Source of the DNA: Solirubrobacterales bacterium
Lineage (GTDB): Bacteria; Actinomycetota; Thermoleophilia; Solirubrobacterales; 70-9
Direction: 5' to 3'
DNA: 64,000 nucleotides
Assembly: GCA_035502495.1 (NCBI GenBank)
Contig: DATJUK010000141.1
Location: 22,545-86,544, forward strand
Part shown: piece by piece, positions 41,322 through 63,376 of the stretch
How positions within the stretch are numbered: the stretch's first letter is position 1
Layout: each line of letters opens with the position of its first letter
The notes under the pieces: generated by a model
Databases searched by the model: none
The model's input: only the letters and a program-made list of their open reading frames with translations
Told to the model about the DNA's origin: nothing
Translations under genes and position numbers: made by a program

Positions 41322-41380
41322 TCCGGCGCCGGGCGGCGTAGGCAGGCGCAGGGAGGACGGGTAACGTCTTCCCCAGAGCG

Positions 41381-43406: not shown

Positions 43407-43412
43407 GCCATC

Positions 43413-45348: not shown

Positions 45349-45367
45349 CCAGGCCGGGTCTCCAGAG

Positions 45368-45440
45368 TGGGCCGTGTAGGGCTCGAACCTACGACCTTGA
45401 GATTAAGAGTCTCCTGCTCTACCAACTGAGCTAACGGCCC
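45368..45440 (-). tRNA. tRNA-Lys (anticodon CTT)
   Basis: Minus strand GGGCCGTTAGCTCAGTTGGTAGAGCAGGAGACTCTTAATCTCAAGGTCGTAGGTTCGAGCCCTACACGGCCCA. Acceptor GGGCCGT/ACGGCCC, anticodon loop CTCTTAA. Confidence 0.93.
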
Positions 45441-45503: not shown

Positions 45504-46286
45504 TCAGCGCTGGGCGCAGTACTTTTCGAGCCCGACGCCTTCGATCGTCAGGCCGTTGGAGAAGGTGAAGGCGCCGTGGCTGCGCAGGATGTGGTCGCTG
45601 CAGCGGGCGGCGACGTAGCTGCGCTGCTTGCCGCCGGCGGTGTAGCGGCGGCCGACCTTGATGCTGATCTTGGTGATCGCGCCGAGCCCGCCCGCCAGCG
45701 GCGGGATGTTCGCCACCGCCCGGTAGCGGAATTCCCCGCGGCGCTTTTCGATCGGCACGGTGAAGGCGTAGGTCTGGGTCGCCGGCACCGTGGTGCGGGC
45801 GTGGACGATCACGGTCGGCTTGCCTCCCAGGCGCGGGCCGTTGAAGAGGGTCAGCGGCGAGCCGGTCGGGACCAGGTTGCCGGAGACCGGGAGGGCGACC
45901 AGGGCTTCGACCTTGCCGGTGCCGACGATCGCGCCCTTGCAGATCCGCCGCGCTTCTTCGACGCTCACTTCGTCGATCGAGGCCGGCGCGCAGGTCGGCA
46001 GCCCGGCGACGTCGAGGCGGCCGTCGCGGTCGAAGTCGAGGACCACCTGCTGCAGGGCCGGCGGCTGCCCGCCGCCCGGTTTGGAGACGTCGAGAAAGCC
46101 GGAGAACTGGACCGGGGCGAAGCTCTTCACCGGCAGGTCACGGGGCTGGAAGGCGGCGTTGACTTCGATCCGCACTTCGCGCGTTTCGACCATCGCCGTG
46201 GCCCCGGCGACGGCGGCGCATAGCGCGCAGGCGAGGAGGAGGATCGCGAGGACGGGGAGGAGCCGCTTCAGCTTTCGAAGTGGCAT
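45504..46286 (-). CDS. P-family member P1: exported 4-Cys protein (possible lipobox LLAC)
   Basis: MPLRKLKRLLPVLAILLLACALCAAVAG.. signal. Motifs GLPTC..EEARRIC.GAIVGTG, LFNGP, HA, IPPLAGGLG, SYVAARC and the terminal C. The start overlaps the end of P2 by 19 nt. Confidence 0.75.
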   Translation of the reverse strand: MPLRKLKRLLPVLAILLLACALCAAVAGATAMVETREVRIEVNAAFQPRDLPVKSFAPVQFSGFLDVSKPGGGQPPALQQVVLDFDRDGRLDVAGLPTCAPASIDEVSVEEARRICKGAIVGTGKVEALVALPVSGNLVPTGSPLTLFNGPRLGGKPTVIVHARTTVPATQTYAFTVPIEKRRGEFRYRAVANIPPLAGGLGAITKISIKVGRRYTAGGKQRSYVAARCSDHILRSHGAFTFSNGLTIEGVGLEKYCAQR

Positions 46287-47068
46287 GGCGAGGTGAGCAG
46301 CGACTGCAGGAAGCTGCCGTCGGTGAAGATGAGTTCGCCGTGGACCTGGAGTCGGCCGCCGGAGCATTCGGCTTCGGCGTACCCGACCTTGCGGCCGTGG
46401 CGCTTATAGGTGCGACCGAACTGCGCTTCGGCGAGGATCGCCGAGCCGTCGCCGCCGGCGATCGGCGGCAGTTCCAGTTCGGCCCGGTAGCCGTAGCGGC
46501 CGTGGCTGATCTTTTCGACCGTGAACGGGACCAACAGCGCCTGCGGCGAGGGCACGGTCTCGTAGGCGTGGGCGATCAGGGCCGGTTTGCCGCCTTCCGG
46601 GGGCGCGTTGAAGATCGAGATCGGCGAGGTCATCACGAAGGGTGGCTTGCCGGGGAGGTCGACGCGGGCTTTGCCGACGCCGGTGCCGAGCAGCGCCGCG
46701 CCGCAGCGCTTGCGCGCTTCGTCGGGGGTGGTGCCTTCCAGCTTTGCCACCGTGCAGGTCGGCAGGCCCTTGAAGTTCAGCTTGCCGTGCTTGTCGAATT
46801 CGAAGATCAGCGTCTTCAGCGCCGGCGGCCGTTCCCCGTTCACGGTCTTGATCCGGACGATGCTGCCGAAGCTGGCCGGCAGGGTGCCGTGCTGGGGGAA
46901 CGCCCGCGGCTGGAATTCGGCGGTGGCGCTGACCTTCAGGTTGCCGATCTGGGTGGTGACCGCGTAGGCGACCGCACCGCCGACCAGGCTCACGACGAGC
47001 AGGAGGGTCGCGACCGTCCCGACCCGCCTGCCGCGTGAGCCGCGGCGCCTCAATTCTTCCCCGTGCAC
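46268..47068 (-). CDS. P-family member P2: exported 4-Cys protein
   Basis: TM ..VATLLLVVSLVGGAVAYA. GLPTC..DEARKRCGAALLGTG, IFNAP, AHAY, LPPIAGGDG, GYAEAEC and the terminal C. GTG 47068 was chosen because the junction mirrors the P2/P1 junction. TTG 47053 is an alternative. Confidence 0.72.
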   Translation of the reverse strand: MHGEELRRRGSRGRRVGTVATLLLVVSLVGGAVAYAVTTQIGNLKVSATAEFQPRAFPQHGTLPASFGSIVRIKTVNGERPPALKTLIFEFDKHGKLNFKGLPTCTVAKLEGTTPDEARKRCGAALLGTGVGKARVDLPGKPPFVMTSPISIFNAPPEGGKPALIAHAYETVPSPQALLVPFTVEKISHGRYGYRAELELPPIAGGDGSAILAEAQFGRTYKRHGRKVGYAEAECSGGRLQVHGELIFTDGSFLQSLLTSPCHFES

Positions 47069-47817
47069 TGTTTGAGGATCAGCCCGCTCAGTTTGGTCGA
47101 GTCGGTGAATTCGGTTTCGATTTTCGCCTGCAGCTTGCCGCTGGGGCAGCTGGCGTTGACGTAGCTCAGCCGCTGACCCTTGAAGGTCCATTTTTTGCCG
47201 ATCGTCAGGCTGCCTTCGAGCGGGATCCCGGCGCCGCCGGCGATCTTCGGGATCGTCGCTTCGGTGCGGAAGCCGAAGGGCCCGTTGCGCACCCTCTGGA
47301 TTTCGACCGGGACGATGTAGGTGGTCGGCGCGGGCACGCTCAGGTAGGCGTGGGCGAGCACCGTCGGGTTGCCGTTGTGGGGCGGCGCGTTGAAGATCGT
47401 GATCGGCGAGCTCGCCCTGAACGGCCGCTGTTCGGGGAAGGCGATGACCGCGGTGCCGTGACCCTCGCCGACGATCGAGCCGCCGCAGACTTTGCGCGCC
47501 TGCTGCGAGGTGGTCGCCGCCAGCTTCGCTTTGGTGCAGTAGGGCAGGCCCTTGGTGATGACTTCGCCGTGTTTGTCGTACCAGACGGTGAGCTTGTGCA
47601 GGATCGGCGGCAGCGAGCCGTCGGTGGTCCCGATGCTGCCTTCACCGTGGATCGTGATCGGCGCGAATTCGTGCTTCGGCAGCGTCGTCGGCGAGAAGCC
47701 GCCTTCGCCCACCACTTCGATCGGCCCCGCGCGCAGCACGATCGCCAAGGCCGCACCGCTCATCGTCAGCAGTGCGACGGCGGTCAAGATGACCATCCTT
47801 AACACGTTCTTCCGCAT
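47050..47817 (-). CDS. P-family member P3: exported 4-Cys protein
   Basis: MRKNVLRMVILTAVALLTMSGAALA signal. GLPYC..QQARKVCGGSIVGEG, IFNAP, AHAY, IPKIAGGAG, SYVNASC and the terminal C. Confidence 0.78.
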   Translation of the reverse strand: MRKNVLRMVILTAVALLTMSGAALAIVLRAGPIEVVGEGGFSPTTLPKHEFAPITIHGEGSIGTTDGSLPPILHKLTVWYDKHGEVITKGLPYCTKAKLAATTSQQARKVCGGSIVGEGHGTAVIAFPEQRPFRASSPITIFNAPPHNGNPTVLAHAYLSVPAPTTYIVPVEIQRVRNGPFGFRTEATIPKIAGGAGIPLEGSLTIGKKWTFKGQRLSYVNASCPSGKLQAKIETEFTDSTKLSGLILKQCTGKN

Positions 47818-47859
47818 AGGTTCGCTCCTCCCGTAGCCCCGAGCGGCAAACTACCACGG

Positions 47860-50800
47860 GTGGGAAGGAGTAGGAGCAGGGGAGGGGACCGGCCTCGGGA
47901 TTCGGCGACCGCGCGACGGCAGCCTTGGCTGCTGCGGCATCCGCGCGAGATCCTGCTGATCGCCGGGATCGTCCTGGCGGCGCTGGCCGTGATCGGCACC
48001 GGGGTCGACAAGCGCCTCGACCCGACCACGCTCGCCGTGCCCGGCAGCTCGGCGACGGAAGCGAACCAGCTGCTGGAAGAACACTTCGGGCCCTCGGCGC
48101 CGTTCGCGATCCTGCTGCAGGGGCCCGCCGCGGCGCTGGACGAACAGGGCCCGGGCCTGGTCGAAGCGTTGCGCGACGAACCGGGGGTCACGACGATCTC
48201 ACCCTGGGACAAGGGCACGGTCGAAGGCCTGCGACCGCATCCCGGAGACGCGCTGATCCTCGCCGACTTCCACGTCGGCACCAAAACGGCGGTCAACCAG
48301 ACCGTCCCCCACGTCGAACAACTTCTGCAAGAACACGTGAGCGCGCCGGTGACCGCGACGCAGACCGGGTACGCGACGCTGTCGCGGGCGCTGCAGGAGG
48401 AAACCATCGACTCCGCCGAGCACGACGAGCTGATCGCGCTGCCGATCCTGCTGGTCGTCCTCCTGCTCGTCTTCCGCTCGCCGATCGCCGCGGTGATCCC
48501 GCTCGGCTTCGGCGCGATCACCGTGCTCTCCTCGCGCGGGATCCTCTACTTCCTCACCTCCTGGTTCTCGATCGACGCCTTCGCGCTGACCGTCTGCACG
48601 ATGATCGGGCTGGCGCTGGGGGTGGACTACGCCCTCTTGATGGTCTCGCGCTTCCGCGAGGAGCTGGCCGACGGGGCGGAGCCGATCGAAGCGGCGCGGA
48701 GGACGCGCAAGCACGCCGGGCGCACGGTCGCCTTCGCCGGCTCGACCCTCCTGGTCTCGATGCTGGTCTCGCTGCTGATCCTGCCCGGGTCGCTGCTGAT
48801 CTCGCTGGCGGGGACGGTGGCGATGGTCGTCGTCCTCTCGGTGACCGTGGCGACGCTGGTCGGCCCGGCGGTCCTGACCCTGGCGGGAACCAACGTGAAC
48901 CGCTGGCGGATCGGCAAGGCGGCCAGCGCCGACCGCTCCGCGGTGATGGCGTTCGTCAACGCGGCGCTGCGCCGACCGCTGGTCGCGGCGCTGGTGATCG
49001 GCGGCGTGCTGCTGGCGCTGGCGGCGCCGGCGATCGGGCTGAAGCTGGGGCCGCCGAGCCCCGAACAGCTCTCCAAGGACTCGCCCACGCGCCAGAACCA
49101 GGAACTGATCGACGACACGATCGGGCCGGGCTGGGACGCGCCGTTCCAGGTGGTCGCCGTCAACCCCACCGGGCCGGTCACCGACCCGGGCAGCATGGCG
49201 GCGCTGGAACGGTTCCAGCGCCGGATCGCCTCGTTCGGCGGCGTCAAAGTCGTGATCGGCCCGACCGCGGCGACCAAGCGGGTCGAGCCGCTGCAGGAAC
49301 TCGGCAACGCGGCGCTCTCGTCGAAGGGGAACATCGGCCCGGTCAAGGAACTCGGGCACCTGGGCAAGGAACTGAACGTGGCGGCCGGCGGGGTGGGGGC
49401 GCTGCGGGCCGGGATCGGCGAAGCAAGCGACGGCGCCGGGCTGCTGGCGCAGGGCTCCGAACACGCGACCGAAGGCGCGCAGCTGCTCGCCCACGGGTTG
49501 GAGCGGGCGGCGGGCGGCAGCCGGCGGGCGATCGACGCCCTCGAACGGTTCGCGAAAGGCTCGGAAAAGCTGGTCGAATTCCAGCTGGAAGCCGCGATCG
49601 GCACGCAACAGATCCGCGCCGCGACGGAGACCTTCGTCGGCCCGACCCTCCGCTACAACGGCCTCCAGACCCAGCGCAACCTGGTCCGCCGGCTGCTCGC
49701 CGAGGCGAACGAAACGCTGCCCAGGTTGCTGAAGCCGGCCCAGGAGACGGTGGAAAAGCTGCAGGCGGCGGAAGCGAGGCTGAAGGAAGCGACGGCCGGC
49801 GATCCGGCTGCCGCGGCGGCGCTGGAAGAGGTGCAGGCGGCGCTGACCGCGATGACCGGCACCGACCCGGCGACCGGCGCGCACTACGAAGAAGGCTACG
49901 CGGGGCTGGTCGGCGAAATCGAAGCGCTCGAGCGGCGGCTCGGCCACGACGGCGCCGAAGCCCACAAAGTCGCCACCTTCATCCACTCGACGATCACCGA
50001 AATGCACCGGGTCTCAAACGAAATGGGCCGCCTGATCTCGGGCCTCTACAAAATGCACAAAGCGACCAACACGCTCGCCCACGGGGCCCGCAAGCTGGCC
50101 AACGCGGCGGGCACGCTGGGCAAAGGGATCGAACGGCTGAGCGGCGGCGCCGACTCGCTGGCCAGCGGGCTCGCCCGCCTGGTCGGCGGCGCCGAATCGC
50201 TGGAACAGAATCTCGCCGAGGGCGTGACGAAGTCCGAACCGCTGGAAACCGGGCTGGAAGAAGCCAGCGTCCAGGTGCTGGAAGGCAAGTCGAAGATCCA
50301 CCGCCAGGCCGCGAAGGTGCAGGAGCAGTCGCCAGGCCTCTTCAACTCGGGGTACTTCGTGCTCTCGGCCCTCGACGGTGCGCCCCCCGGGACGCGCGAA
50401 AAGATCGGTCAGACGATCAACGTGGAAAAAGGTGGGCAGGCGGCCGCGGTCCTGGTGATCTCGAAGTACGAATTCAACTCGCCCGGCTCGATCGCGCTGA
50501 ACCGGCGGCTCGCGGGGGCGGCGACGGAACTGGGCCAGGACGCGAGCCTCGAGACCGGGGTCGCGGGCGGCGCCGCGCAGCTGAACGACTACAGCCACAT
50601 CACCCGCGAACGGATCCCCTGGATCATCGCGATCATCACCCTGGTCACCTTCCTGGTGCTGGTCGTGGTCCTGCGAGCGCTGCCGCTGGCGGCGATCGCG
50701 GTGGGGCTGAACCTGCTCACCGTCGGCGTCGCCTTCGGCATCCTCACGATCCTCTTCCACGTGCCGAAGGACTGGCCGTTGGGCGGCCACGACTACGTCG

Positions 50801-51174
50801 ACGCGGTCGGCTCCTGCATGATCTTCGCCCTCGTCTTCGGGCTCTCGATCGACTACGCGGTCTTCCTCCTGACGCGGATGCGGGAGCGCTACGAGGCGGG
50901 CGACGACAACGCCACCGCGGTGCGCTTCGCGCTGGACAAGACGGCGCGGGTGATCACCGGCGCGGCGGCGATCATGCTGGCCGTCTTCATCGCCTTCGCC
51001 GGGGCGCCGATCGCGACCGTGAGCCAACTCGGGGTCGGCCTCACCGTCGCGGTGGTGCTCGACGCCACCGTGGTGCGGATCGTCCTGCTGCCCGCCCTGA
51101 TGCTCCTGCTCGGCGACCGCGTCTGGTGGCTGCCGCGCCCGCTCCAGCGGGTGCTGCCGCGGTTCGAGGTATGA
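47860..51174 (+). CDS. MMPL-family (RND superfamily) transporter with a very large second ectodomain carrying helical Ala/Gly/Leu-rich repeats
   Basis: Two 6-TM bundles (..GLALGVDYALLMVSRFREE.. and ..GLSIDYAVFLLTRMRE..). First ectodomain is about residues 50-190 and the second about 395-918 by my count. The second includes YhgE/Pip-like repeats (..GAQLLAHGLERAAGG.., ..LSGGADSLASGLARLVGGAESLEQNL..). Confidence 0.92.
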   Translation: MGRSRSRGGDRPRDSATARRQPWLLRHPREILLIAGIVLAALAVIGTGVDKRLDPTTLAVPGSSATEANQLLEEHFGPSAPFAILLQGPAAALDEQGPGLVEALRDEPGVTTISPWDKGTVEGLRPHPGDALILADFHVGTKTAVNQTVPHVEQLLQEHVSAPVTATQTGYATLSRALQEETIDSAEHDELIALPILLVVLLLVFRSPIAAVIPLGFGAITVLSSRGILYFLTSWFSIDAFALTVCTMIGLALGVDYALLMVSRFREELADGAEPIEAARRTRKHAGRTVAFAGSTLLVSMLVSLLILPGSLLISLAGTVAMVVVLSVTVATLVGPAVLTLAGTNVNRWRIGKAASADRSAVMAFVNAALRRPLVAALVIGGVLLALAAPAIGLKLGPPSPEQLSKDSPTRQNQELIDDTIGPGWDAPFQVVAVNPTGPVTDPGSMAALERFQRRIASFGGVKVVIGPTAATKRVEPLQELGNAALSSKGNIGPVKELGHLGKELNVAAGGVGALRAGIGEASDGAGLLAQGSEHATEGAQLLAHGLERAAGGSRRAIDALERFAKGSEKLVEFQLEAAIGTQQIRAATETFVGPTLRYNGLQTQRNLVRRLLAEANETLPRLLKPAQETVEKLQAAEARLKEATAGDPAAAAALEEVQAALTAMTGTDPATGAHYEEGYAGLVGEIEALERRLGHDGAEAHKVATFIHSTITEMHRVSNEMGRLISGLYKMHKATNTLAHGARKLANAAGTLGKGIERLSGGADSLASGLARLVGGAESLEQNLAEGVTKSEPLETGLEEASVQVLEGKSKIHRQAAKVQEQSPGLFNSGYFVLSALDGAPPGTREKIGQTINVEKGGQAAAVLVISKYEFNSPGSIALNRRLAGAATELGQDASLETGVAGGAAQLNDYSHITRERIPWIIAIITLVTFLVLVVVLRALPLAAIAVGLNLLTVGVAFGILTILFHVPKDWPLGGHDYVDAVGSCMIFALVFGLSIDYAVFLLTRMRERYEAGDDNATAVRFALDKTARVITGAAAIMLAVFIAFAGAPIATVSQLGVGLTVAVVLDATVVRIVLLPALMLLLGDRVWWLPRPLQRVLPRFEV

Positions 51175-51184
51175 GGGCCTGGAG

Positions 51185-51216
51185 GGCCGTGTCAGGCAAG
51201 CTCGCCTGACACGGCC
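51185..51216. terminator. 13-bp-arm hairpin between convergent MMPL and P4 genes
   Basis: GGCCGTGTCAGGC-AAGCTC-GCCTGACACGGCC. Confidence 0.55.
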
Positions 51217-51223
51217 ACCGGCG

Positions 51224-52027
51224 CTACTTCTTCTTCGGCTTCTTCGGTTCGGCCTTCGGCGTGCAGGCTTGGCTGTGGGTGGCTTCGATCGTGGTGCCGT
51301 CTTTGTAGGTGAAGGCGCCGCGGTACTTGAGCTTCTTCGAGGCCGGGCATTTGGCGTTGATGAAGCTCATCTTCTTGCCTTTGTAGGTCCAGGTCTTCTG
51401 GATCTTCACCTTGAAGTCGGTGATCGCGCCGGAACCGCCGGCGATCGGCGGGATCGTCACGTCGAGGCGCGGGCCGTAGCCTTCCTTGCCGTAGTTGGAG
51501 ACGACCCCGGTCAGGACCAGGGTGGTCTGGACCGGCGAGGTGCCGTAGGCGTGCAGGAGGACCACCGGTCTACCGCCCTGCGGGACGCCGTTGAAGGCGG
51601 TCACCTTGGTCGGCTCGGTGTAGAGGACGCCCAGGGGCAGCAAAGTGGTCGCTTCGCCGCTGCCGATCTTGGCCTTGGCGCACACCCGTTCGGCGACTTC
51701 GGTCGAGGCGCTCTGCAGCTGCGAGGCGTTGCAGGTCGGCAGGCCCTTGGTCGCCAGCGCGAGGTTCTGGTCGAAGTCGATGACGTCGTGGACCGCCGGG
51801 CTCGGGGCGCCGGTGGTCGAGTTGGTGCTTCCCGTCTTGACGTCGACGAAGAGCGAGCCCGGCGAGAAGGTCTTCTTGTAGAGCGCCTTGGGCGAGACCG
51901 TCGCTTCCATCGACTGGGTGTTGCCGTCGGGGCCGGTCACGGTTTCCCCGGCGAGGGCCGCGGAGACGGGGATCGCGATCGCCACGAGGGCGGCAAGGCT
52001 CGCGATCAAAATGAAACGTTTGCGCAT
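51224..52027 (-). CDS. P-family member P4: exported 4-Cys protein with a Lys/Pro-rich tail
   Basis: MRKRFILIASLAALVAIAIPVSAALA signal, AGGAG SD. GLPTC..EVAERVCAKAKIGSG, AFNGVP, LHAY, IPPIAGGSG, SFINAKC, terminal C, then ..KAEPKKPKKK. Confidence 0.78.
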   Translation of the reverse strand: MRKRFILIASLAALVAIAIPVSAALAGETVTGPDGNTQSMEATVSPKALYKKTFSPGSLFVDVKTGSTNSTTGAPSPAVHDVIDFDQNLALATKGLPTCNASQLQSASTEVAERVCAKAKIGSGEATTLLPLGVLYTEPTKVTAFNGVPQGGRPVVLLHAYGTSPVQTTLVLTGVVSNYGKEGYGPRLDVTIPPIAGGSGAITDFKVKIQKTWTYKGKKMSFINAKCPASKKLKYRGAFTYKDGTTIEATHSQACTPKAEPKKPKKK

Positions 52028-52217
52028 TGAGTTGCTCCTGAATCGGAAATTTGCGGATCGCCTCCCAGTTCCCCAACCGGTCCGCGGCGCCAGAGTAGCG
52101 CGTTGATTTCCAGTTAAGTCCCCGCTCAGGCGCCGTTTAGCCGGGAATGGCTCGGATACGATTCGCGCGCCCGTTCCGCAGGGTCGAGGGGGCCAGGGAG
52201 GGGGCAAGCGACGACCC

Positions 52218-53618
52218 GTGGCTGCGAAACCCCAAGGCGAGGAGAAACGCTCGGCTCCGAGCCGAGGGACCACTCCTGCCCGGCTCGCGGCGATCGGGGC
52301 CCTGGCGGCGGTGGTGATCGTGCTCGCGATCGTGCTCTTCAGCGGCGGCGGCGGCCACAAGTACACCTTCATGTTCCAGAACGCCGGCCAGCTGGTGAAC
52401 GACAACCAGGTGCTGATCGGCGGCTCGCCGGTGGGGACCGTCTCCAGCATCGAACTGAGCCCCGAGAACCTGGCCGAAGTCAACGTCGAAGTCGAACAGG
52501 AACTGCACGAAGGGACGACGGCGGTGATCCGCGCGACCTCGCTCTCCGGCGTCGCCAACCACTACCTCTCGATCAGCCCTGGCCCGAACTCGAATCCGGC
52601 GCTCGAAGAAGGGGCCACGCTGGGCCTCTCCTCGACCACGACGCCCGTCGATATCGACCAGTTCTTCAACAGCTTCCCGCCGAAGGTGCGCGAAGGCCTG
52701 CAGAACTTCATCAAAGGCAACGGGCAGATCTATGCCGGGCGCGGCAAGGAAGCCAACGAAAGCTACAAGTACTTCGGCACGGCGCTGAACAGGAGCGCTC
52801 ATTTCGCCTCCGAACTGAACGCCGACGAACAGCTGCTCTCGCACTTCCTGGTCAGCTCGGCGAAGCTGACCTCGGCGATCTCCGGACGCGGCGCCCAGCT
52901 CTCCAGCGCGATCTCCAACGCGACCACCGCGTTCCAGTCGATCAACACCCAGAACGTCGCCCTCGACCAGGCCCTGCAGGAGCTGCCCCCGGTCCTGCGC
53001 CAGTCGAACACCACCTTCGTCAACCTGCGCGCCGCGCTCGACGACGTCGAACCGCTGATCAACACGGCCAAGCCGGCGACGAAGAACCTGGCCCCGTTCC
53101 TCGCCGAACTGCGCCCGGTGATCAGCAAATTCATCCCGTTCACGCGCAACTTCGGCCTGGCGCTGAGCAGGCCCGGCCCGCACAACGACACGCAAGAGCT
53201 CCTGGCGATCATGCCGACCGTCCAGACGCGCGCCTCCCGCACCTTCCCCCACGCCGAAGGGGCGATCGCCGCCTTCCAGCCGCAGTTGAGCTTCCTCCGC
53301 TCCTACACCCCGGATTTCTTCAACGGGATCTCGAAGCTGGGGCAGATCAGCGGCTACTACGACGGCAACGGCAACTACGTCCGCGCGGCGACGACGTTGC
53401 AGAACATGTTCAAGAACGAAAACGGGACGCTGAACGTGATCCCGAAGTCGGAACAGCTCGCCCCCCTCGGCGGGCCTTCGGCGACGCCGACGCGTTGCCC
53501 GGGCGGAGCGGCGCAGGCGCCCGCCGACAACTCGGCTCCCTACGTGAACCCGCCGCACGGCGGCAGCGGCGTCGGCGCATCGGACTGCAACCCCTCGCAG
53601 GCGGTGGGCGGTCCGTGA
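52218..53618 (+). CDS. MCE/MlaD-family protein 1 of 6
   Basis: N-terminal TM, MCE domain (YTFMFQNAGQLVNDNQVLIGGSPVGTVSSIEL...LSGVANHYLSISPG), long helical region, Cys-pair tail. Confidence 0.9.
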   Translation: MAAKPQGEEKRSAPSRGTTPARLAAIGALAAVVIVLAIVLFSGGGGHKYTFMFQNAGQLVNDNQVLIGGSPVGTVSSIELSPENLAEVNVEVEQELHEGTTAVIRATSLSGVANHYLSISPGPNSNPALEEGATLGLSSTTTPVDIDQFFNSFPPKVREGLQNFIKGNGQIYAGRGKEANESYKYFGTALNRSAHFASELNADEQLLSHFLVSSAKLTSAISGRGAQLSSAISNATTAFQSINTQNVALDQALQELPPVLRQSNTTFVNLRAALDDVEPLINTAKPATKNLAPFLAELRPVISKFIPFTRNFGLALSRPGPHNDTQELLAIMPTVQTRASRTFPHAEGAIAAFQPQLSFLRSYTPDFFNGISKLGQISGYYDGNGNYVRAATTLQNMFKNENGTLNVIPKSEQLAPLGGPSATPTRCPGGAAQAPADNSAPYVNPPHGGSGVGASDCNPSQAVGGP

Positions 53619-55165
53619 AAAAGCTGATCGCCGGAGCAGTGGTGGTGGCCGCGATCGTCGTCGCGGTGATCCTGATCGCGGGCGGCGGCTCGGGCGAAGG
53701 CTACGTCGTGCGCGCCGTCTTCGACCAAGGCTCGTTCATGGTCAGCGGTGAGCAGGTGCGCGTCGCCGGCGCCAACGTGGGGGAAATCAAGTCGGTGGGG
53801 GTCTCCTTGCCGGGCGAACCGACGGCGATCGAAGACGGCAAGTTCAAGGACGTCCCGGGCAAGGCGATCATCGAGCTCGAAATCACCGATCCCGGCTTCC
53901 AGGACTTCCGCCAGGACGCCAGCTGCGAAATCCGGCCGCAGTCGCTGATCGGCGAGAAGTACGTCAACTGCACGCCGACCGTGCCGCGGGCGCCGGGCCA
54001 GCAGGAGGCCCCGCCGCTGAAACAGATCCCGGCAGGCGAACCTGGCGCGGGCCAGTATCTGCTGCCGCTCGGCAGCAACACGACCAGCGTCGATCCCGAC
54101 CTGATCAACGACATCCAGTCGCTCCCCTACGCGCAGCGCTTCCGGCTGATCTTCAACGAACTCGGGGCCGGGCTGGCGGGCCGCGGGGAAGACCTGGAAG
54201 CGGCGATCAAGCGCGCCAACCCGACCTTGCGCAACGTCGACCTCCTGTTCAAGCAACTGACCGAAGAGAAGCATCAGCTCGCCCAACTGGCCTCCGACTC
54301 GAAGGAAATCCTCGAACCGCTGACGCGCGAAAAGCAACACGTGGTCGGCTTCCTCGCCCATTCCGGCGAAGCGGCCGAAGCGAGCTCGGCGCACGGGCCG
54401 GAACTCGAAGAGGCGCTGCAGAAGTTCCCCCGGTTCCTGACCGAGTTCCGCGCGACGATGGCCAATCTCAAGGAGTTCTCCGACGCGGGCACGCCGCTGC
54501 TCGAAGACCTCGGGGTGGCGGCGCCGTCGCTGACCGACGCGACCCGGGCCCTGACGCCGTTCTCGAAAGCGACGACGACGGCGCTCACCAGCCTCGGCAG
54601 CGTGGGCGAAGAAGCGGGCCCGGTCTTCGCGGAAGCGACGCCGGTGGTGCGGAAGGCGAGCAAGCTGGCGATCAGCGGCGAAGTGTCGACCGCCGAACTC
54701 GCCCATCTGTTCGTCAGCATCAAGGAAACCGGTGGGTGGAACGGTCTCACCGAACTGATCTACAACACGGCGCTTTCGCTGAACGGCTTCGACAAATACG
54801 GCCACTACGGCCGCACGCTGCTCAATCTGACCGCCTGCATCGAATACATCCCGCATCCGGGCGGCTACAGCGGCTGCGTGGCGCGGTTCCACGGATACCA
54901 GGCGTCGGAAAGCGAAACGGAAACCAGCGCCCGGGCGCTGGTGCGTCTGATCAATCGCCTCGACACCGAACGAGCGGAACTGGCCGAAGCCGAAAACGGG
55001 GGTACCGCCGCCGAGAAGCCCGCCGCCACCCTGGGCGGGGCGCGCTCGGCCGAAGGAACCGCGCCCGCGCGACGCGGCGGCGGCGAAGGCAACCCGGGCC
55101 TCGGTGAAGCGACGACCACCGAAGGGGCGACCGAACCCCTTCTCGACTACCTCCTGGGCCAATGA
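53615..55165 (+). CDS. MCE/MlaD-family protein 2 of 6
   Basis: The GTG overlaps the previous stop (GTGA). TM, MCE domain (YVVRAVFDQGSFMVSGEQVRVAGANVGEIKSV...LIGEKYVNCTP), helical region, acidic/Gly tail. Confidence 0.9.
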   Translation: MKKLIAGAVVVAAIVVAVILIAGGGSGEGYVVRAVFDQGSFMVSGEQVRVAGANVGEIKSVGVSLPGEPTAIEDGKFKDVPGKAIIELEITDPGFQDFRQDASCEIRPQSLIGEKYVNCTPTVPRAPGQQEAPPLKQIPAGEPGAGQYLLPLGSNTTSVDPDLINDIQSLPYAQRFRLIFNELGAGLAGRGEDLEAAIKRANPTLRNVDLLFKQLTEEKHQLAQLASDSKEILEPLTREKQHVVGFLAHSGEAAEASSAHGPELEEALQKFPRFLTEFRATMANLKEFSDAGTPLLEDLGVAAPSLTDATRALTPFSKATTTALTSLGSVGEEAGPVFAEATPVVRKASKLAISGEVSTAELAHLFVSIKETGGWNGLTELIYNTALSLNGFDKYGHYGRTLLNLTACIEYIPHPGGYSGCVARFHGYQASESETETSARALVRLINRLDTERAELAEAENGGTAAEKPAATLGGARSAEGTAPARRGGGEGNPGLGEATTTEGATEPLLDYLLGQ

Positions 55166-56604
55166 GGAACCGGCACGGAGGATTCGCGGTGAGCCCGGTG
55201 CTGGTCGGCGCCGTGACGGTGCTGGTGATCATCGTCGCCGTCTTCCTCGCCTACAACGCCAACAACGGCCTGCCGTTCGTCTCGACCTACGACCTGAAGG
55301 CGCGGCTGCCCAACGCCGACGCGCTGGTGAAGGCGAACGAGGTGCGGATCGGCGGCGCCCGGGTCGGGGTGGTCAAGTCGGTGGTCCCGGTGCAGAGGAA
55401 GAACGGGGCGGTCGAAGCGGAACTCACCCTGAGCCTCGACAAGAGCGCCGAACCGATCCCCAACGACTCGACCATCGAGGTGCGGCCGAAATCGCCGCTC
55501 GGCCTCAAGTACCTGCAGATCACCCCGGGAAGCTCGACCGTCGGCTACAAGGCCGGCGAAACGATCCCGGTCCGCTACGCGACGCCGGAACCGGGGGACA
55601 TCGACAAATTCTTCGACATGTTCAACACGCCGACCCGCAAGGCGATCCAGCGCAACCTGGCGGGCTTCGGCAACGCCCTGGCCGGGCGCGGGCCGCAGCT
55701 GAACGAAGCGATCGGGGCATTGCGCGGCTTTCTCGAAGAAGGCGAACCGGCCTCGGCGACCCTGGCCTCGCCGACGACCAACTTCGCCGGCTTCTTCCGC
55801 GCGGTGGCGGCGCTCTCGGCGACGGTGGCCCCGGTGGCGGGAGAGCAGGCGAGCATGTTCGTCGCCCTCGACCGGACCTTCGCCGCCTTCGCCCACGTCT
55901 CCAGCCCCTACATCGAAGAAACGATCGAAAAGGGCCCGCCGACGCTGGACACGGTCAACGCCGGGCTGCCGAAGATCAACCCGTTCCTGCACGACACCGC
56001 GCGCTTCTTCACCGCCCTGCGCCCTGGCGCCAAGGCGCTGGAGGAAACCTCGCCGATCATCGCCGAATCCCTCCACGCCGGGATCCCGGCGCTGAACGCC
56101 TCGCCGGTCCTCAACAACCAGCTGCTGCCGACCGCGCAGGCGCTGGTCGCCTTCCAGGAAGCCGAAGGGACGATGACCGGCCTGCAGCTGCTCACCGACC
56201 TGAACGAAAACCTCGAAGCGCCGCTGCGGTTCATCACCCCGGCGCAGACCACCTGCAACTACTTCTCCTTGACCTTCACCCAGGTGGCGAGCGCGTCTGG
56301 AGGCGGCAACAAGTACGGCAAGTGGCTGAACTTCATCTCCTTCCCGCCCCCGGAAGGAACCAACAGCGAGTCCGGGCAGGCTTCGGCGCCCGCGAACGGT
56401 CCCAAAGGCAATCATCTCCACTACAACCCGCTGCCCAACACCGCGGCGCCCGGCCAGGCGCGCGGCTGCGAAGCCGGTAACGCGAAATACGCGGAAGGCC
56501 AGACCGTGATCGGCGAAGCACCGCAGGTGTGGTCGGAACAGACCGAAGGCATCTCGCAGGCCAGCGGATCGGAATCCGGATCCGGGGGAGGCGGCAGCGA
56601 ATGA
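55162..56604 (+). CDS. MCE/MlaD-family protein 3 of 6
   Basis: ATGA overlap. TM, MCE domain (YDLKARLPNADALVKANEVRIGGARVGVVKSV...PLGLKYLQITPG). Confidence 0.9.
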   Translation: MRNRHGGFAVSPVLVGAVTVLVIIVAVFLAYNANNGLPFVSTYDLKARLPNADALVKANEVRIGGARVGVVKSVVPVQRKNGAVEAELTLSLDKSAEPIPNDSTIEVRPKSPLGLKYLQITPGSSTVGYKAGETIPVRYATPEPGDIDKFFDMFNTPTRKAIQRNLAGFGNALAGRGPQLNEAIGALRGFLEEGEPASATLASPTTNFAGFFRAVAALSATVAPVAGEQASMFVALDRTFAAFAHVSSPYIEETIEKGPPTLDTVNAGLPKINPFLHDTARFFTALRPGAKALEETSPIIAESLHAGIPALNASPVLNNQLLPTAQALVAFQEAEGTMTGLQLLTDLNENLEAPLRFITPAQTTCNYFSLTFTQVASASGGGNKYGKWLNFISFPPPEGTNSESGQASAPANGPKGNHLHYNPLPNTAAPGQARGCEAGNAKYAEGQTVIGEAPQVWSEQTEGISQASGSESGSGGGGSE

Positions 56605-58073
56605 ACCGCCGACGACAGCGGATCCCGAACTGGCTGATCGCCGTGATCTTCATCCTCGTCTTCACGGTCGGCCCGTACCTGGCCTTCACCAAACACATCC
56701 CGTTCACCAGCTACGGCTACGAGCTGAAGGCGACCTTCGCCAACTCGGCGAACATCGCCGAGAAATCGCCGGTGCGCATCGCCGGGGTCGAAGTCGGCAA
56801 AGTCATCTCCAGCGAACGGGACGGCGACGCGACCACGGTCACCTTCACCGTCGACGACACCGGCCGGCCGATCCACGAGAACGCCTTCGCCTCGATCCGG
56901 CCGCGGATCTTCCTCGAGGGCAACTTCTTCATCGAACTCGACCCGGGCAGTCCGGGCGCCCCCGAACTGAAGAGCGGCGGCACGATCCCGCTCAGCCGCA
57001 CCTCGACCGCGGTGCAGATCGACGAAGTGCTGACCGCGCTGCAGTCGCCGGTCCGCGCCGACCTCGGCCGGCTGCTGGAGAGCTACGGCAGCGCGCTGAC
57101 CCATGAACCGTCGCCTGCCGAAGACCTCGATCAGCTGCCGCAGGTGTCGGGTCTCTCCGGCGGTCAGGCGCTGAACAAGGTCTTCGAATTCGGCGGCGAA
57201 GCGGGCAAATACACGTCCCAGGTGACCCAGGCGTTGACCGGGACCGAACCGCATGACCTCGCCCGCCTGGTCGCCGGGACCGGGCGCACCGCGGCGGCCT
57301 TCGCCGCCGACCAGCAGGATCTGCAGGGGCTGATCGACAACTTCAACACCTTCACCGGGGCGCTCGCCAACCAGTCGGACAACCTGGCGACCACGGTTCA
57401 CCTGCTGGCCCCGACCCTGAAGACCGCGCATACCTCGCTGGTCAGCCTCAACAACTCGCTGCCGCCGCTGCGCACCTACGCGATCGAGTTGACCCCGGCG
57501 GTCGCCGAGCTGCCCGGGCTGATCAAGGCCTCGAAACCGTGGCTCGCCCAGGTGCGGCCGCTGCTCTCCGGCAAGGAGGGGGGAGGAGCGGTGAGGCTGC
57601 TGGCCGAATCGACCCCGGGGCTGGCCGGCGCGGCGCAGGCGGGTAACCAGGTCGCGCTGCCGCAACTGAACCGACTCAGCCTCTGCACCACCCAGGTGCT
57701 GGTGCCGACGGGCAACCAGGTGATCAAGGACCAGTTCAGCACCGGCCAGCCGAACTACCGCGAATTCCTCTACGACCTCACCAACTTCGCGGCCGCGGCG
57801 CAGAACTTCGACGGCAACGGCCCGTTCCTCCGCGCCAACGCGGGCGGTGGGGCGACGCTCGTCGGCGAACCGAACCCGAGCGGCAACCTCGAAAGCGACA
57901 AGATCAACTACTCGCACGTGGCCGAAGTCCCGCTCGGCACGCAGCCCCAGCCGGGCACCAAGCCGCCGCTGAAGCCCGAAGTGCGCTGCGACACGAACCC
58001 GGTTCCCGACGTGAACGGCGCGGCGAGCAGCGTCGGCCCCGCTTCCCCGTCGACCTCCGGAGTGGTCCATTGA
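56601..58073 (+). CDS. MCE/MlaD-family protein 4 of 6
   Basis: ATGA overlap. TM, MCE domain (YELKATFANSANIAEKSPVRIAGVEVGKVISS...FLEGNFFIELDPG). Confidence 0.9.
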   Translation: MNRRRQRIPNWLIAVIFILVFTVGPYLAFTKHIPFTSYGYELKATFANSANIAEKSPVRIAGVEVGKVISSERDGDATTVTFTVDDTGRPIHENAFASIRPRIFLEGNFFIELDPGSPGAPELKSGGTIPLSRTSTAVQIDEVLTALQSPVRADLGRLLESYGSALTHEPSPAEDLDQLPQVSGLSGGQALNKVFEFGGEAGKYTSQVTQALTGTEPHDLARLVAGTGRTAAAFAADQQDLQGLIDNFNTFTGALANQSDNLATTVHLLAPTLKTAHTSLVSLNNSLPPLRTYAIELTPAVAELPGLIKASKPWLAQVRPLLSGKEGGGAVRLLAESTPGLAGAAQAGNQVALPQLNRLSLCTTQVLVPTGNQVIKDQFSTGQPNYREFLYDLTNFAAAAQNFDGNGPFLRANAGGGATLVGEPNPSGNLESDKINYSHVAEVPLGTQPQPGTKPPLKPEVRCDTNPVPDVNGAASSVGPASPSTSGVVH

Positions 58074-59512
58074 GCGACCAGACGCCGAAACCCGCTCGCG
58101 GCCCCGCGCCCGAACGCCGCAGCCGGATCGGGCACTTCCGCGCCTGGCTCGGACGCCAGGCCCGCGGTCACCGCACCGACACGATCGCGATCCTGCTCCT
58201 CGCCTTCGTCGGCGTCGTGATGATGCTCGGGATCTTCACCCAGCAGAAAGCCTCGTTGCCATCGTGGCTCCCCGTGGTCGGCGAAGAATTCGACCACATC
58301 TCGGCCGAGTTCACCACCGCCCAGGCGGTCACCCCCGGCCAGGGGCAGGCGGTCGACGTCGCCGGCATCCAGATCGGCAAGGTCGCCTCGGTCAACCTCG
58401 AAGACGGCCACGCGGTGGTCGGGATGGAGATCGAGCCGAAGTACATGAAGCTGATCCACCCGGACGCGCAGTTCCTGCTGCGGCCGAAAACCGGCCTCAA
58501 CGACATGATCGTCGAGGTCGAACCGGGCAGTGGCGAAGGTGAGGTCAAGGACGGCCACGTGTTCGGTCTCTCCCAGACCGAACCGAACGTCAACCTCGAC
58601 CAGTTCCTCGCCAGCCTCGACGCCGACACGCGCCAGTACATCCAGCTGTTGGTGGCGGGCGGGGCGCAGGCCGTCGGCGGCCACAGCAAGGAGCTCGGCG
58701 ACGTGTTCCGCCGCTTCGAGCCGTTCGTCGAATACAACGCGAAGCTGAACAAGGCGCTCGCCGGTCGGCGCACGCAGCTTGCCCGGGTGATCCACCTGTT
58801 CGGCGAGCTCACCACCGAACTCGGCAGGCACGACCAGCAGGTCCGCCGCTTCGTCAGCTCCTCGAACAAGGCGCTCGGCAACTTCGCCAACCAACAGCAG
58901 GCGCTCGAAAAGACCTTCGAAGAGTTCCCCTCGACCTTGCGGGTGGCCGGCGAAGGCCTCGCCAGCTCGAACGAATTCTCCCAGGTGGCGCTGCCGACGC
59001 TGACCAAGCTGATCCCGCAGGCGCAGGCCTCGGCCCCGGCGTTCAAGGCGACCGAGAAGCTCTTCGCGAAGACGACCGAACCGATCCGGGACGGCATCCG
59101 GCCGCTCACGCGCGAAGTTCGCCCGCTGCTGGTCCAGGCCAACAAGGGCTCCGAACCCCTCGAAAAGACCGTGCGCAGCTTCGGCGAAAGCCTCGGCGGC
59201 CTCAACTCCTTCTTCAACGAGCTCGCCTACAAACCGAAGGGCGGCCAGAGCTATCTCTTCTACCTGCCCTGGGCCAACCACAACCTGAACAGTGCATTCA
59301 GCGTGCAGGACGCGAACGGGCCCGTGCTGCGCGGTCTGCTCGGGATCAGCTGCACGGGCGCGGAACTCGCGTACCAGGACGCGGAAAAACAGCGGCTGGA
59401 AAACAAACCGTTCCTCGAAACCCTCCTGCAGCTGCTCAACGTGCCGCAGAAGCAGGAAATCCCGGTGCCGTTCAAAACCTACTTCGGCCACTGCGAACGG
59501 ACGAAGAATTGA
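58070..59512 (+). CDS. MCE/MlaD-family protein 5 of 6
   Basis: TTGA overlap. TM, MCE domain (ISAEFTTAQAVTPGQGQAVDVAGIQIGKVASV...GLNDMIVEVEPG). Confidence 0.88.
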   Translation: MSDQTPKPARGPAPERRSRIGHFRAWLGRQARGHRTDTIAILLLAFVGVVMMLGIFTQQKASLPSWLPVVGEEFDHISAEFTTAQAVTPGQGQAVDVAGIQIGKVASVNLEDGHAVVGMEIEPKYMKLIHPDAQFLLRPKTGLNDMIVEVEPGSGEGEVKDGHVFGLSQTEPNVNLDQFLASLDADTRQYIQLLVAGGAQAVGGHSKELGDVFRRFEPFVEYNAKLNKALAGRRTQLARVIHLFGELTTELGRHDQQVRRFVSSSNKALGNFANQQQALEKTFEEFPSTLRVAGEGLASSNEFSQVALPTLTKLIPQAQASAPAFKATEKLFAKTTEPIRDGIRPLTREVRPLLVQANKGSEPLEKTVRSFGESLGGLNSFFNELAYKPKGGQSYLFYLPWANHNLNSAFSVQDANGPVLRGLLGISCTGAELAYQDAEKQRLENKPFLETLLQLLNVPQKQEIPVPFKTYFGHCERTKN

Positions 59513-61128
59513 GCAAGCGCGCCCCCAGCACCACGCAGCTCCTCGTGATCACGGCGTTCGCCCTTGCCTGCTTCGGGATCCTGCTCTTCCTCTGGGTCAC
59601 CTTCGGCGGCCCGACCCCGTTCAAAGCGAAGAGCTACCAGGTCAAGGTCCCGTTCACCGAGGCCTCGCAGCTGGCCGAACAGTCCGACGTCCGGATCTCG
59701 GGCGTCGACGTGGGCAAAGTCGAAAGCATCGAACTGGGGCCGAAGGGCAAGGAAGCGATGGCCCTCCTGAACATCGACGACAAGTACGCGCCCCTGCCGG
59801 CCTCGACCCGGGCGATGCTGCGGACGAAGACGCTGCTCGGCGAGACCTACGTCGAACTGACGCCCGGCGCCGCCGGGGAACCGCCGCTCGAGGACGGCGC
59901 CACCTTGCCCGCCGCGCAGGTGACCGAATCGGTGCAGCTCGACGAGATCTTCCAGGCCTTCAACCCGAAGACCCGCCGCGCCTTCCAGACCTGGATGCAG
60001 GAAGCGGCGGTGGCGATCGAAGGTCAGGGTCAGAACCTCTCCTACGCGATCGGCAGCCTCGAACCGACCTTCCGGGAATTCGAAGGCCTCTTCCGCGTCC
60101 TCAACAGCCAGGAAGCGGCGGTCTCCGCGCTGTTCAGCAACGGGGCGAAGACCTTCGAAGCGCTGCGCGGGCGCGAAGGGGAGCTGGCGAACCTGATCCG
60201 GAGCTCCAACGAGCTCTTCAAGACGACCGCGTCGCGCAACCAGGACATCGAAGCGCTGTTCCGCGCCTTCCCGACCTTCCAGGACGAGTCCCGCCTCACC
60301 GTCGATCGCCTCCAGCGCTTTGCCGTCAATGCCGACCCGCTCTCGAGACAGCTGGTGCCGGTCGCCGAACAGCTGTCGCCGACCCTGATCGCCTTCGGCA
60401 AGCTGGCGCCGGAAGCGAAGAAGCTCTTCGAAGCGCTGCCGCCGGTGATCAAGGAGGCGCCGACCGGCTTCCCGGCGCTGCGCAAGCTCTTCCGCGACGA
60501 CTTCCCGCCGCTGCTGCGCGCCTCCGAACCATTCGTCCGCAACCTGAATCCGGTGGTGACCGGCCTCGACCTCTACAAACGGGACATCGCCGCCTCCTTC
60601 GGCAACCTCGCCGCCGCCTTCCACGGTCGGCTGACCGCGAGCGAAACGGGCACCGCTGCCCACTACCTGCGGGTGATGGGCCCGATCAACGCCGAAACCT
60701 TGTCCACCTATCCGACTCGACTCACCAGCAACCGAAACAGCCCGTACAGCCCGTCCGGGTGGGCCGCGCTCCTCGCCGAAGGTTCGCTGCCCGTCTACGA
60801 CAACCGCCAATGCACCTCGGGCACCTCGGCCACGGTGGCGCCGACGCCGGGAAGCAACCCGGCCCTGCTGGAACGCATCCCCACCGAACGCTTCAAATAC
60901 AACCCGGCCCTGCCGAACGAAGAAGAAGTCGTCAAGCCCAGTCAGGAACAGCGCGAAAAAGAAGCCGAAGCGCTGCTCTCCTACCTGAAGACCTTCGCGT
61001 TCGGCGGTCAGTCCGGCACCGCCGGTTCCCCCGCCCCGGCCTGCAATCTGCAGAAGCCGTTCGAATCGATCTACGGCAGCGGCGAAAAGACCCAGTACCA
61101 GCACACCTACGAACAGACCGGCCGCTGA
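59509..61128 (+). CDS. MCE/MlaD-family protein 6 of 6
   Basis: TTGA overlap. TM, MCE domain (YQVKVPFTEASQLAEQSDVRISGVDVGKVESI...LLGETYVELTPG), long C-terminal tail. Confidence 0.9.
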   Translation: MSKRAPSTTQLLVITAFALACFGILLFLWVTFGGPTPFKAKSYQVKVPFTEASQLAEQSDVRISGVDVGKVESIELGPKGKEAMALLNIDDKYAPLPASTRAMLRTKTLLGETYVELTPGAAGEPPLEDGATLPAAQVTESVQLDEIFQAFNPKTRRAFQTWMQEAAVAIEGQGQNLSYAIGSLEPTFREFEGLFRVLNSQEAAVSALFSNGAKTFEALRGREGELANLIRSSNELFKTTASRNQDIEALFRAFPTFQDESRLTVDRLQRFAVNADPLSRQLVPVAEQLSPTLIAFGKLAPEAKKLFEALPPVIKEAPTGFPALRKLFRDDFPPLLRASEPFVRNLNPVVTGLDLYKRDIAASFGNLAAAFHGRLTASETGTAAHYLRVMGPINAETLSTYPTRLTSNRNSPYSPSGWAALLAEGSLPVYDNRQCTSGTSATVAPTPGSNPALLERIPTERFKYNPALPNEEEVVKPSQEQREKEAEALLSYLKTFAFGGQSGTAGSPAPACNLQKPFESIYGSGEKTQYQHTYEQTGR

Positions 61129-63342: not shown

Positions 63343-63376
63343 TGCCGTCCCGGAGGCATCCGGGGGCGCGGCGGGC

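Follow-up and report, generated by a model that had tools for sequence, protein, structure and literature searches.

Genes for an MMPL transporter, a permease-less Mce array and a previously undescribed exported protein family form a conserved supercluster in soil Solirubrobacterales with a proposed role in envelope-lipid transport

To our knowledge, actinobacteria have two known routes for moving lipids across their thick envelope, namely stalked MmpL pumps and Mce tunnels, and we are aware of no answer so far to the question of what receives the cargo of the MmpL stalk in mycobacteria. The MmpS proteins are ~140 amino acids (aa) long and consist of an N-terminal transmembrane (TM) helix followed by a C-terminal Ig-like domain. 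The Mce1-4 systems of Mycobacterium tuberculosis are encoded in yrbEAB-mceABCDEF-mam operons, with MceG supplied in trans, and the PqiABC and LetAB systems of Escherichia coli are MCE tunnels that have a non-ABC membrane partner of the PqiA/LetA type and are built as homohexamers with 3-7 tandem MCE domains. Here we describe a locus from a Solirubrobacterales bacterium (Actinomycetota, Thermoleophilia) in which the gene for an MMPL-family RND transporter and six mce genes adjoin on the same strand and are accompanied by divergently transcribed genes of a family of exported proteins that we denote P. The analysed stretch of 64,000 nucleotides (GenBank assembly GCA_035502495.1, contig DATJUK010000141.1, positions 22,545 to 86,544) is referred to below as the window; it has ~70% GC and is origin-proximal, with dnaA, dnaN, recF, gyrB, gyrA, yidC and a ParA-type ATPase gene.

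The MmpL5 trimer has a 13-nm tube made up of a 196-aa coiled coil of periplasmic domain 2 (PD2); the Ig domain of the adjacent MmpS5 wraps around this tube and stabilises it, as Rv0455c possibly does too (PMC12501195). The MmpS4/5-MmpL4/5 pairs of M. tuberculosis resemble the locus in the window in that an MMPL protein has a long PD2 insert, antiparallel and helical (in our case, as predicted), and adjoins a gene for a small, anchored, beta-rich protein. However, the core of the window transporter is nearer to MmpL3 than to MmpL4/5 and its insert is ~330 aa long compared with 196 aa, P has a domain of ~230 aa that matches MmpS in neither sequence nor fold, the one to three P genes are divergent from the MMPL gene instead of co-operonic with it, and the host, in line with the description of the order in PMC10665443, is regarded as monoderm, with no mycomembrane. 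With Mce1-4, the array shares six consecutive genes for proteins that combine an MlaD/MCE domain with an N-terminal TM helix and a long helical region, as well as flanking genes for small exported accessories and protein lengths (466-556 aa) like those of Mce1A-F, but an MMPL gene or P4 stands upstream in place of yrbEAB, and the accessories belong to the P family. From PqiABC and LetAB it differs in comprising six single-MCE-domain proteins and no PqiA-like gene. A further likeness is to the yrbE-less hexads of other Thermoleophilia, namely Thermoleophilum album, Patulibacter americanus and Conexibacter, in which, as far as can be judged from the gene tabulation of PMC10665443, sets of six MlaD proteins lack an adjacent MlaE pair and MlaE pairs are encoded elsewhere in the genome.

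The P family and its neighbours in the window

Gene calls combined frame analysis by GC content at third codon positions (GC3) with Pfam and NCBIfam searches. They bear out the layout that an earlier, sequence-only reading of this DNA had described, namely MMPL and hexa-Mce genes side by side on one strand, each with divergent P genes, and a fifth family member heading a sulfatase operon 7 kb upstream; all these elements were found, at the positions it had given or close to them (Table 1). The five P proteins of the window (P1 to P5) are 26-36% identical to one another and each starts with a hydrophobic helix. The sequence-only reading had taken them for an uncharacterised exported family and had allowed that they might instead match a known, unrelated one, and the comparisons uphold the former: none of the five proteins has a match in Pfam or NCBIfam, and the family profile matches nothing among the PDB sequences. 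When 1.84 billion cluster representatives were searched with a profile, 2572 were recognised as members (E<1e-3); the window proteins themselves score 1e-77 to 1e-101 against the family profile. The consensus comprises the N-terminal hydrophobic helix and the motifs GLPxC (G-[LIV]-P-x-C), Ax3Cx2AxVGxG, FNG and PxIAGGxGS; in an alignment of 118 sequences, C94 and C111 are invariant, and C224 and C251 are conserved in at least 90%.

An AlphaFold2 model of P3 from these 118 sequences (predicted local distance difference test score, pLDDT, 94.9; predicted template modelling score, pTM, 0.87) consists of the N-terminal helix followed by ~16 strands and is almost all-beta. Compared by Foldseek with the PDB and the BFVD viral library, the model has no neighbour at E<1e-3, the best query TM-score being 0.34. 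The weak, non-significant matches are ligand-binding beta-barrels together with adhesin- and lectin-like sandwiches, a mixture that is of no use for naming the fold of P. P is a previously undescribed exported family, with an N-terminal signal or anchor helix and an all-beta domain of ~230 aa that has two probable disulfides. Assignment to MmpS was considered and dropped: no match to it appeared in Pfam, NCBIfam or the PDB and no MmpS is among the top 50 Foldseek matches listed, and the features common to P and MmpS are limited to the N-terminal helix and the adjacency to MMPL. Some members of the family are tandem duplicates. In others, the P domain is found at the C-terminus of NHL/SGL-type beta-propeller proteins, most of which also contain InlB B-repeats (P0061, P0062, P0070, P0113, P0131 and P0150); at one related locus (L002), such a P-beta-propeller fusion is encoded within a run of very large unannotated genes.

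The MMPL protein belongs to the RND family of PF03176, which it matches in two stretches corresponding to the two half-domains, and its 14 hydrophobic segments form two blocks. The nearest PDB sequence is MmpL3 (4e-52), with MmpL4/5 at ~1e-24. The insert, which aligns to nothing among the PDB sequences, is predicted to be alpha-helical and occupies approximately residues 493-823 of PD2, between TM7 and TM8; its consensus shows heptads of the xxxLxxG type. An AlphaFold2 model of the whole protein, built from 40 database homologues, is poor because the alignment is shallow, and we used it for the secondary structure of the insert only: two helices, at residues 533-643 and 683-785 (~105 residues each, pLDDT 65-79). 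The model suggests that the insert is a long antiparallel helical hairpin whose helices, if straight, would measure roughly 15-16 nm.

All six Mce proteins contain PF02470 and have N-terminal hydrophobic segments, in keeping with the actinobacterial six-gene Mce type; TIGR00996 was detected in MceA and MceF, the two proteins that were scanned against NCBIfam. Scores against Rhodococcus MceA-F are too weak for one-to-one orthology, or for descent from a canonical yrbEAB-mce operon, to be assigned.

On the opposite strand, P3, P2 and P1 form one operon, given that the gene ends overlap by 4-19 nt (19 nt between P1 and the end of P2). The mce genes are regulated on their own, as a unit separate from MMPL, because mceA is preceded by a conserved leader and the MMPL gene is followed by a perfect hairpin, which lies between the convergent stop codons of MMPL and P4 and is likely to be a bidirectional terminator. 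The leader of ~125 bp, within the 130-150-bp spacer between MMPL and mceA, contains an imperfect palindrome, TTGAyTTCCAGTTAA, and ~45 bp downstream of it an invariant GGATACGAT, which includes a candidate -10 element (TAnnnT); from there, conservation in the alignment of 27 loci runs on to the GTG start codon. The leader is kept with or without insertion of P4. The same block was also noticed just upstream of mceA in loci L122-L200. An RNA element was considered and abandoned, since the leader matched no Rfam family and RNAalifold found no covariation; treated at the DNA level, it is probably the mce promoter together with an operator for some regulator.

Table 1. Positions of the main features of the window, and of the X genes of three related loci (locus:positions)
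Feature	Position	Strand	Basis or remark
Tat-signal sulfatase	33533-35185	-	PF00884 at 4.8e-40
Lactonase-type 7-bladed beta-propeller	35182-36663	-	PF10282
441-aa exported protein, no known family	36747-38072	-	P5 operon
P5, P-family paralogue, first gene of its operon	38091-38933	-	family profile
Rieske / cytochrome b / cytochrome c / ubiE	38984-42124	+	
tatA, tatC	43125-44192	+	
CC269, single-pass, long helical ectodomain	44202-45011	+	no Pfam match
tRNA-Lys(CTT)	45367-45440	-	directly downstream of P1, between P operon and CC269
P1, 260 aa, final gene of P3-P2-P1 operon	45504-46286	-	GC3 frame; P-family hidden Markov model (HMM), 1e-83
P2, ~266 aa, start GTG 47068 or TTG 47053	46268-47068	-	P-family HMM
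P3, 255 aa, leading gene of operon, divergent from MMPL	47050-47817	-	orthologues, AlphaFold2
MMPL-family RND transporter, 1104 aa, start uncertain within first ~20 codons	47860-51174	+	PF03176, 2.7e-66
Perfect GC-rich terminator-like hairpin, 13-bp stem, GGCCGTGTCAGGC-AAGCTC-GCCTGACACGGCC	51181-51212	.	sequence read directly
P4, 267 aa, divergent from mceA	51224-52027	-	P-family HMM
Conserved mceA leader/promoter region	52095-52217	+	alignment of 27 loci
MceA, 466 aa	52218-53618	+	PF02470, PF11887, TIGR00996
MceB, start uncertain	53495-55165	+	PF02470
MceC	55162-56604	+	PF02470
MceD	56529-58073	+	PF02470
MceE	58070-59512	+	PF02470
MceF	59509-61128	+	PF02470 3e-19, TIGR00996
GT1 glycosyltransferase	61201-63435	-	
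X gene, between stalked MMPL paralogue and P5-like gene	L024:4128-4697; L072:966-1583; L110:365-955	-; +; +	

Upstream of this region, the P5 operon consists of P5 and the genes for the 441-aa protein, the beta-propeller and the sulfatase, in this order; a C-x-P-x-R motif (CMCSPSR) and a twin-arginine signal can be read from the sulfatase sequence. Wherever both flanks are visible in related loci, CC269 lies between tatC and the P genes, and it may belong to the transport system.

Conservation of the locus and the missing permease

A 'hypothetical protein' with 100% identity to P3 is encoded by a metagenome-assembled genome (MAG) of a Solirubrobacterales bacterium, and many soil metagenomes contain P3 orthologues of 79-88% identity; the complete chromosomes among the related MAGs span 2.6-2.9 Mb only. 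At the closely related locus L001 (P3 88% identical), the same order extends from P5 as far as the fourth mce gene, at which point the flank ends. For a broader comparison, 80 metagenomic loci were selected via MceA orthologues of 64-88% identity and annotated with the window proteins. Among the 70 with enough upstream DNA, an MMPL gene precedes mceA in the same direction in 66, either directly (31 loci), with a divergent P4 in between (26) or with another insert (9, including HipA-like and small winged helix-turn-helix (wHTH)-like genes), and is missing in the remaining 4; in two of these, a large Cys-rich secreted protein (L158) or unrelated genes (L186) take its place. The genes inserted between MMPL and mceA are P4 or mobile or toxin-antitoxin-like genes, permeases never being among them. 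In some genomes, this spacer is an insertion hotspot (L199:8272-9546(-), L200:5661-6278(+), L188:7325-9896); one insert is a 425-aa open reading frame that is HipA-like by eye, and others are small wHTH-like genes.

Divergent P genes beside MMPL could be counted in 37 loci, 21 of which have three, 14 two and 2 one, and an extra P gene follows mceF in 9 of 34. Median identity to the window proteins is 52-60% for P1-P3, 62% for MMPL, 61-71% for the Mce proteins and 77% for TatC. Given that the same order recurs in L001 and in dozens of metagenomic loci, it is not due to chance. In the explanation favoured below, these genes make up a conserved supercluster for envelope-lipid transport, shared by a clade of soil Solirubrobacterales with small genomes. 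A scan of species-representative genomes with a degenerate DNA motif found at least 119 stretches, of which 114 contain true P genes; the titles of the genomes so confirmed, among the matches listed, refer to Solirubrobacterales or, less specifically, to Actinomycetota or Actinomycetes, apart from one untyped MAG.

The observation that the array lacks the usual permease genes, already made from the sequence, is confirmed for the window: no YrbE/MlaE permease was revealed there by Pfam scans or by phmmer, for which the YrbEA/B proteins of Rhodococcus and the MlaE of E. coli served as queries. The paired YrbEA and YrbEB genes expected in the operon of an Mce transporter are absent here, compared with the canonical reference operon of Rhodococcus pROB01, which runs yrbEA, yrbEB, six mce genes, two small genes and an ATPase gene. 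The ABC ATPases seen are generic; the window contains a single one, at 28873-29640, whose partner is an ABC-2 permease. The ±10 kb around each of the ~80 related loci likewise yielded no YrbE/MlaE homologue, and neither did 2.1 Mb of related DNA; this sample, spread over many genomes, amounts to less than one genome-equivalent, so that its lack of yrbE has little power and a yrbEAB set may be present at an unlinked site.

The published record points in the same direction. Grasekamp et al. 2023 (PMC10665443) noted that Solirubrobacterales, as monoderms, have multiple MlaDE homologues, and stated that the function of these in monoderm Actinobacteria is unknown. In supplementary file 3 of that work, T. 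album is entered with 12 MlaD and 2 MlaE, the MlaE pair standing, by accession order, beside one of two hexads; P. americanus likewise with 12 MlaD and 2 MlaE, the nine MlaD identifiers shown being on contig 1 and the MlaE pair on contig 2; and Conexibacter sp. Seoho-28 with 56 MlaD and 14 MlaE. By these entries, some Mce hexads in cultured Thermoleophilia have no adjacent permease pair, because MlaD counts far exceed three times those of MlaE, and permease-less hexads with yrbE pairs elsewhere appear to be common in this class. The three organisms could be tractable models for yrbE-less hexads.

The P proteins and their possible partners

The linkage of P to MMPL and Mce genes extends beyond the orthologous locus. 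We grouped 154 P domains, from the window, L001-L002 and the genome-scan loci, into 33 clusters at 55% identity; 13 of the clusters, comprising ~30% of the domains, are encoded no more than 1.8 kb from an MMPL or Mce gene. Compared with the ~1% expected for a random gene, an unmeasured estimate that assumes a 2.7-Mb genome with no more than three MMPL genes and one mce operon, this enrichment is large. Thus, the survey of co-occurrence proposed with the sequence-only reading, for which the lack of any enrichment was to count as refutation, came out in favour of an association. This association takes several independent forms: the divergent doublet or triplet, P4 inside the spacer, P after mceF and, at a second MMPL paralogue, a co-directional MMPL-X-P operon. 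The second paralogue, which is 48-54% identical to the window MMPL and also has the insert, is found in this arrangement in L024, L072 and L110 and probably in L042, L049, L018 and L064; X is a secreted helical protein of ~150 aa in the mature form, with two Cys and no Pfam match, and the adjoining P is P5-like. In L049, a P gene, the gene for a large Cys-rich protein, MMPL and another P gene follow one another, and in L060 a third MMPL of 735 aa, which has no insert, adjoins a P gene.

Large proteins such as that in L049 form a recurrent family and are often encoded next to P; they are 1000-1400 aa long, with 13-24 Cys, a signal peptide and no Pfam match (L049:403-3519, L115:317-4534, L025:113-3802, L158:170-3253 and others). 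They were examined as potential P homologues and set aside, with a profile-profile probability of 3.7% and sub-threshold HMM scores; a hairpin motif, 'LPxG..P..C...C..[VI]G', is all that they have in common with P.

The explanation that we favour, if tentatively and short of considering it probable, is that P proteins are extracytoplasmic accessory subunits of the stalked MMPLs and might serve the Mce needle in the same capacity; the Mce hexad would be a neighbouring module with its permease in trans. The MMPL core would be an RND transporter driven by proton motive force, whose PD2 carries an antiparallel helical hairpin of ~15 nm. Encoded in a translationally coupled operon divergent from MMPL, P3, P2 and P1 would be anchored at the membrane, where they would bind and stabilise the stalk in the manner of MmpS or Rv0455c, and perhaps also tie it to the wall or pass the lipid on. 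An MmpS-like role at the stalk is our best guess, by analogy: because the predicted stalk parallels the MmpL5 coiled coil that is stabilised by MmpS5, P could be a functional, non-homologous counterpart of MmpS. P4, and the P encoded after mceF in other genomes, may serve the Mce needle likewise. The six Mce proteins would form a separate, heterohexameric tunnel for the same lipid class as MMPL or a related one; the likeliest candidate for its membrane and energy partner is a YrbE/MceG set from another site in the genome, by the example of the yrbE-less hexads listed for other Thermoleophilia. We infer all these functional steps from gene order and analogy, including the physical contact of P with MMPL or Mce, the trimeric state of the stalk, the lipid substrate and the permease in trans.

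Several facts weigh against this explanation. The evidence for a partnership consists entirely of gene order, and most of the supporting loci are orthologous, so that they represent few independent evolutionary events. P shares neither sequence nor fold with MmpS and is twice as large, MMPL may have one, two or three P genes beside it, and the overall MMPL model is poor (pLDDT 46). Some 70% of the P genes have no MMPL or Mce neighbour in the 8-kb blocks seen, the other neighbours being TetR regulators (14 of 131), large Cys-rich secreted proteins and housekeeping genes; since most P domains are encoded elsewhere or are fused to NHL beta-propellers, the domain is not dedicated to these transporters. 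A rival explanation, which we consider unlikely although by no means negligible, is that P is a general module for binding to the cell surface or wall (structural, adhesive or an enzyme anchor) that clusters with envelope genes without being a transporter subunit. The C-terminal position of the domain in proteins with NHL beta-propellers and InlB B-repeats is typical of anchoring domains, many of the P genes found elsewhere stand beside the large Cys-rich secreted proteins, P5 heads the sulfatase and beta-propeller operon, and the weak Foldseek matches include adhesins and lectin-like beta-sandwiches. However, such a module would hardly be expected to adjoin two to three different MMPL paralogues directly, to occupy three sides of the MMPL-mce block and to do so with genes that often overlap or are translationally coupled to each other; nor do P orthologues evolve like fast-evolving surface adhesins, their median identities being close to that of MMPL. 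The proposal of the sequence-only reading that P is an extracytoplasmic partner shared by the MMPL, Mce and sulfatase modules is favoured by gene order for the first two but weakly supported for the third: the P5 association is seen only in close relatives, with P5 followed by the gene for the 441-aa protein in L001, where the flank stops before the sulfatase, and with the full order including beta-propeller and sulfatase in L058.

A bolder proposal, also raised from the sequence, was that the proton-driven MMPL, and not a YrbE/MceG unit, is the inner-membrane engine of the Mce tunnel, with P as the collar or adaptor of the combined machine. The position of MMPL speaks for it, in that this gene occupies the usual yrbEAB slot in nearly all loci, in many without an intervening gene, and no permease is among the inserts; no YrbE/MlaE was encountered in any of the DNA searched, and MCE systems free of ABC components are known in E. 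coli (PqiAB, LetAB). Yet mceA always has its own invariant promoter/operator-like leader, the MMPL gene of the window is followed by a perfect hairpin, the mce genes occur at four loci that have no MMPL, and the paralogous stalked MMPL works without an Mce neighbour; the absence of yrbE is, moreover, a low-powered observation, and in related genera, as far as the published tabulation covers them, some Mce hexads coexist with yrbE pairs to which they are not linked, one of the situations that the sequence-only reading had named as refuting its proposal. On balance, we regard this engine as improbable, and equally so the full version in which a stalked MMPL, a P collar and a YrbE-less Mce tunnel make up one trans-envelope lipid machine, the RND pump having replaced the ABC unit. 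Least probable among the explanations weighed here is a role of P as a lipid carrier, whether soluble or tethered, that functions in the way of LolA, LprG or LppX and takes hydrophobic cargo from the MMPL or brings it to the Mce tunnel across the wall. Barrels for hydrophobic ligands do occur among the Foldseek matches (nitrobindin, Rv2717c, LolA, the LolA-like NE2245 and the AvmM/PloI4 cyclases), P adjoins lipid transporters, and the multiple paralogues could reflect multiple cargoes; but all these matches are non-significant (E>1e-3, TM-score at most 0.34 on the query), and no LppX or LprG match was obtained in Pfam or the PDB.

Glutamate codon choice and the biology of the lineage

The genes of the supercluster also stand out in their glutamate codons. 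Among window genes with equal GC3 (~0.9), GAA accounts for 3-30% of the Glu codons in genes for cytoplasmic proteins and for 64-100% in P1-P5, CC269, MMPL, MceA-F and the genes for the 441-aa protein, the sulfatase and a CARDB protein; the most extreme use was noted in CC269 (87%). The signature, which in the window is clearest in MMPL, MceA and CC269, was noticed in loci L003-L201 as well; it is kept in the orthologues from the 80 loci, and in P1-P5, MMPL, Mce and CC269 it agrees with their exported nature. Across 462 genes of diverse Solirubrobacterales, the median GAA fraction is 0.14 for those without a hydrophobic segment and 0.50 for those with exactly one. The Glu codon tracks membrane topology even within single genes: in 38 MMPL sequences, periplasmic Glu is encoded by 1240 GAA and 537 GAG compared with 15 GAA and 239 GAG in cytoplasmic loops, and in MceA orthologues the cytoplasmic N-terminal tail has 5 GAA and 125 GAG compared with 985 GAA and 340 GAG in the ectodomain. 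At columns of invariant Glu in MMPL, one codon is near-fixed (GAG at E190, E267, E268 and E1009; GAA at E415, E521 and E686), although the proteins are only 48-85% identical.

The sequence-only reading had noted a preference for A-ending codons of both Glu and Lys; it holds for Glu, whereas Lys, like Gln, shows no compartment pattern of this kind. Two potential causes were discarded: the tRNA gene next to P1 encodes tRNA-Lys(CTT) and is ruled out as the source of the GAA bias, and there is no sign that GAA has been reassigned, given that for GAA positions in GyrA and GyrB, just as for GAG positions, the most frequent counterpart in E. coli is Glu. Among the papers listed by a brief literature search, none describes a link between Glu codon and topology. 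The topology dependence is new here; it represents a case of strong site-specific selection on a synonymous codon and provides a marker, based on sequence only, for extracytoplasmic domains in this lineage.

Should the MMPL indeed be the driver of the Mce tunnel, an RND engine and an MCE conduit would be coupled in a new manner. Whichever explanation holds, a stalked MMPL, a permease-less Mce array and a new exported family stay together at one locus in this lineage, which has no mycolic acids; this makes the lineage a natural comparison set for the mycobacterial systems and a source of candidate partners, and the locus could show which of the accessory functions are generic.

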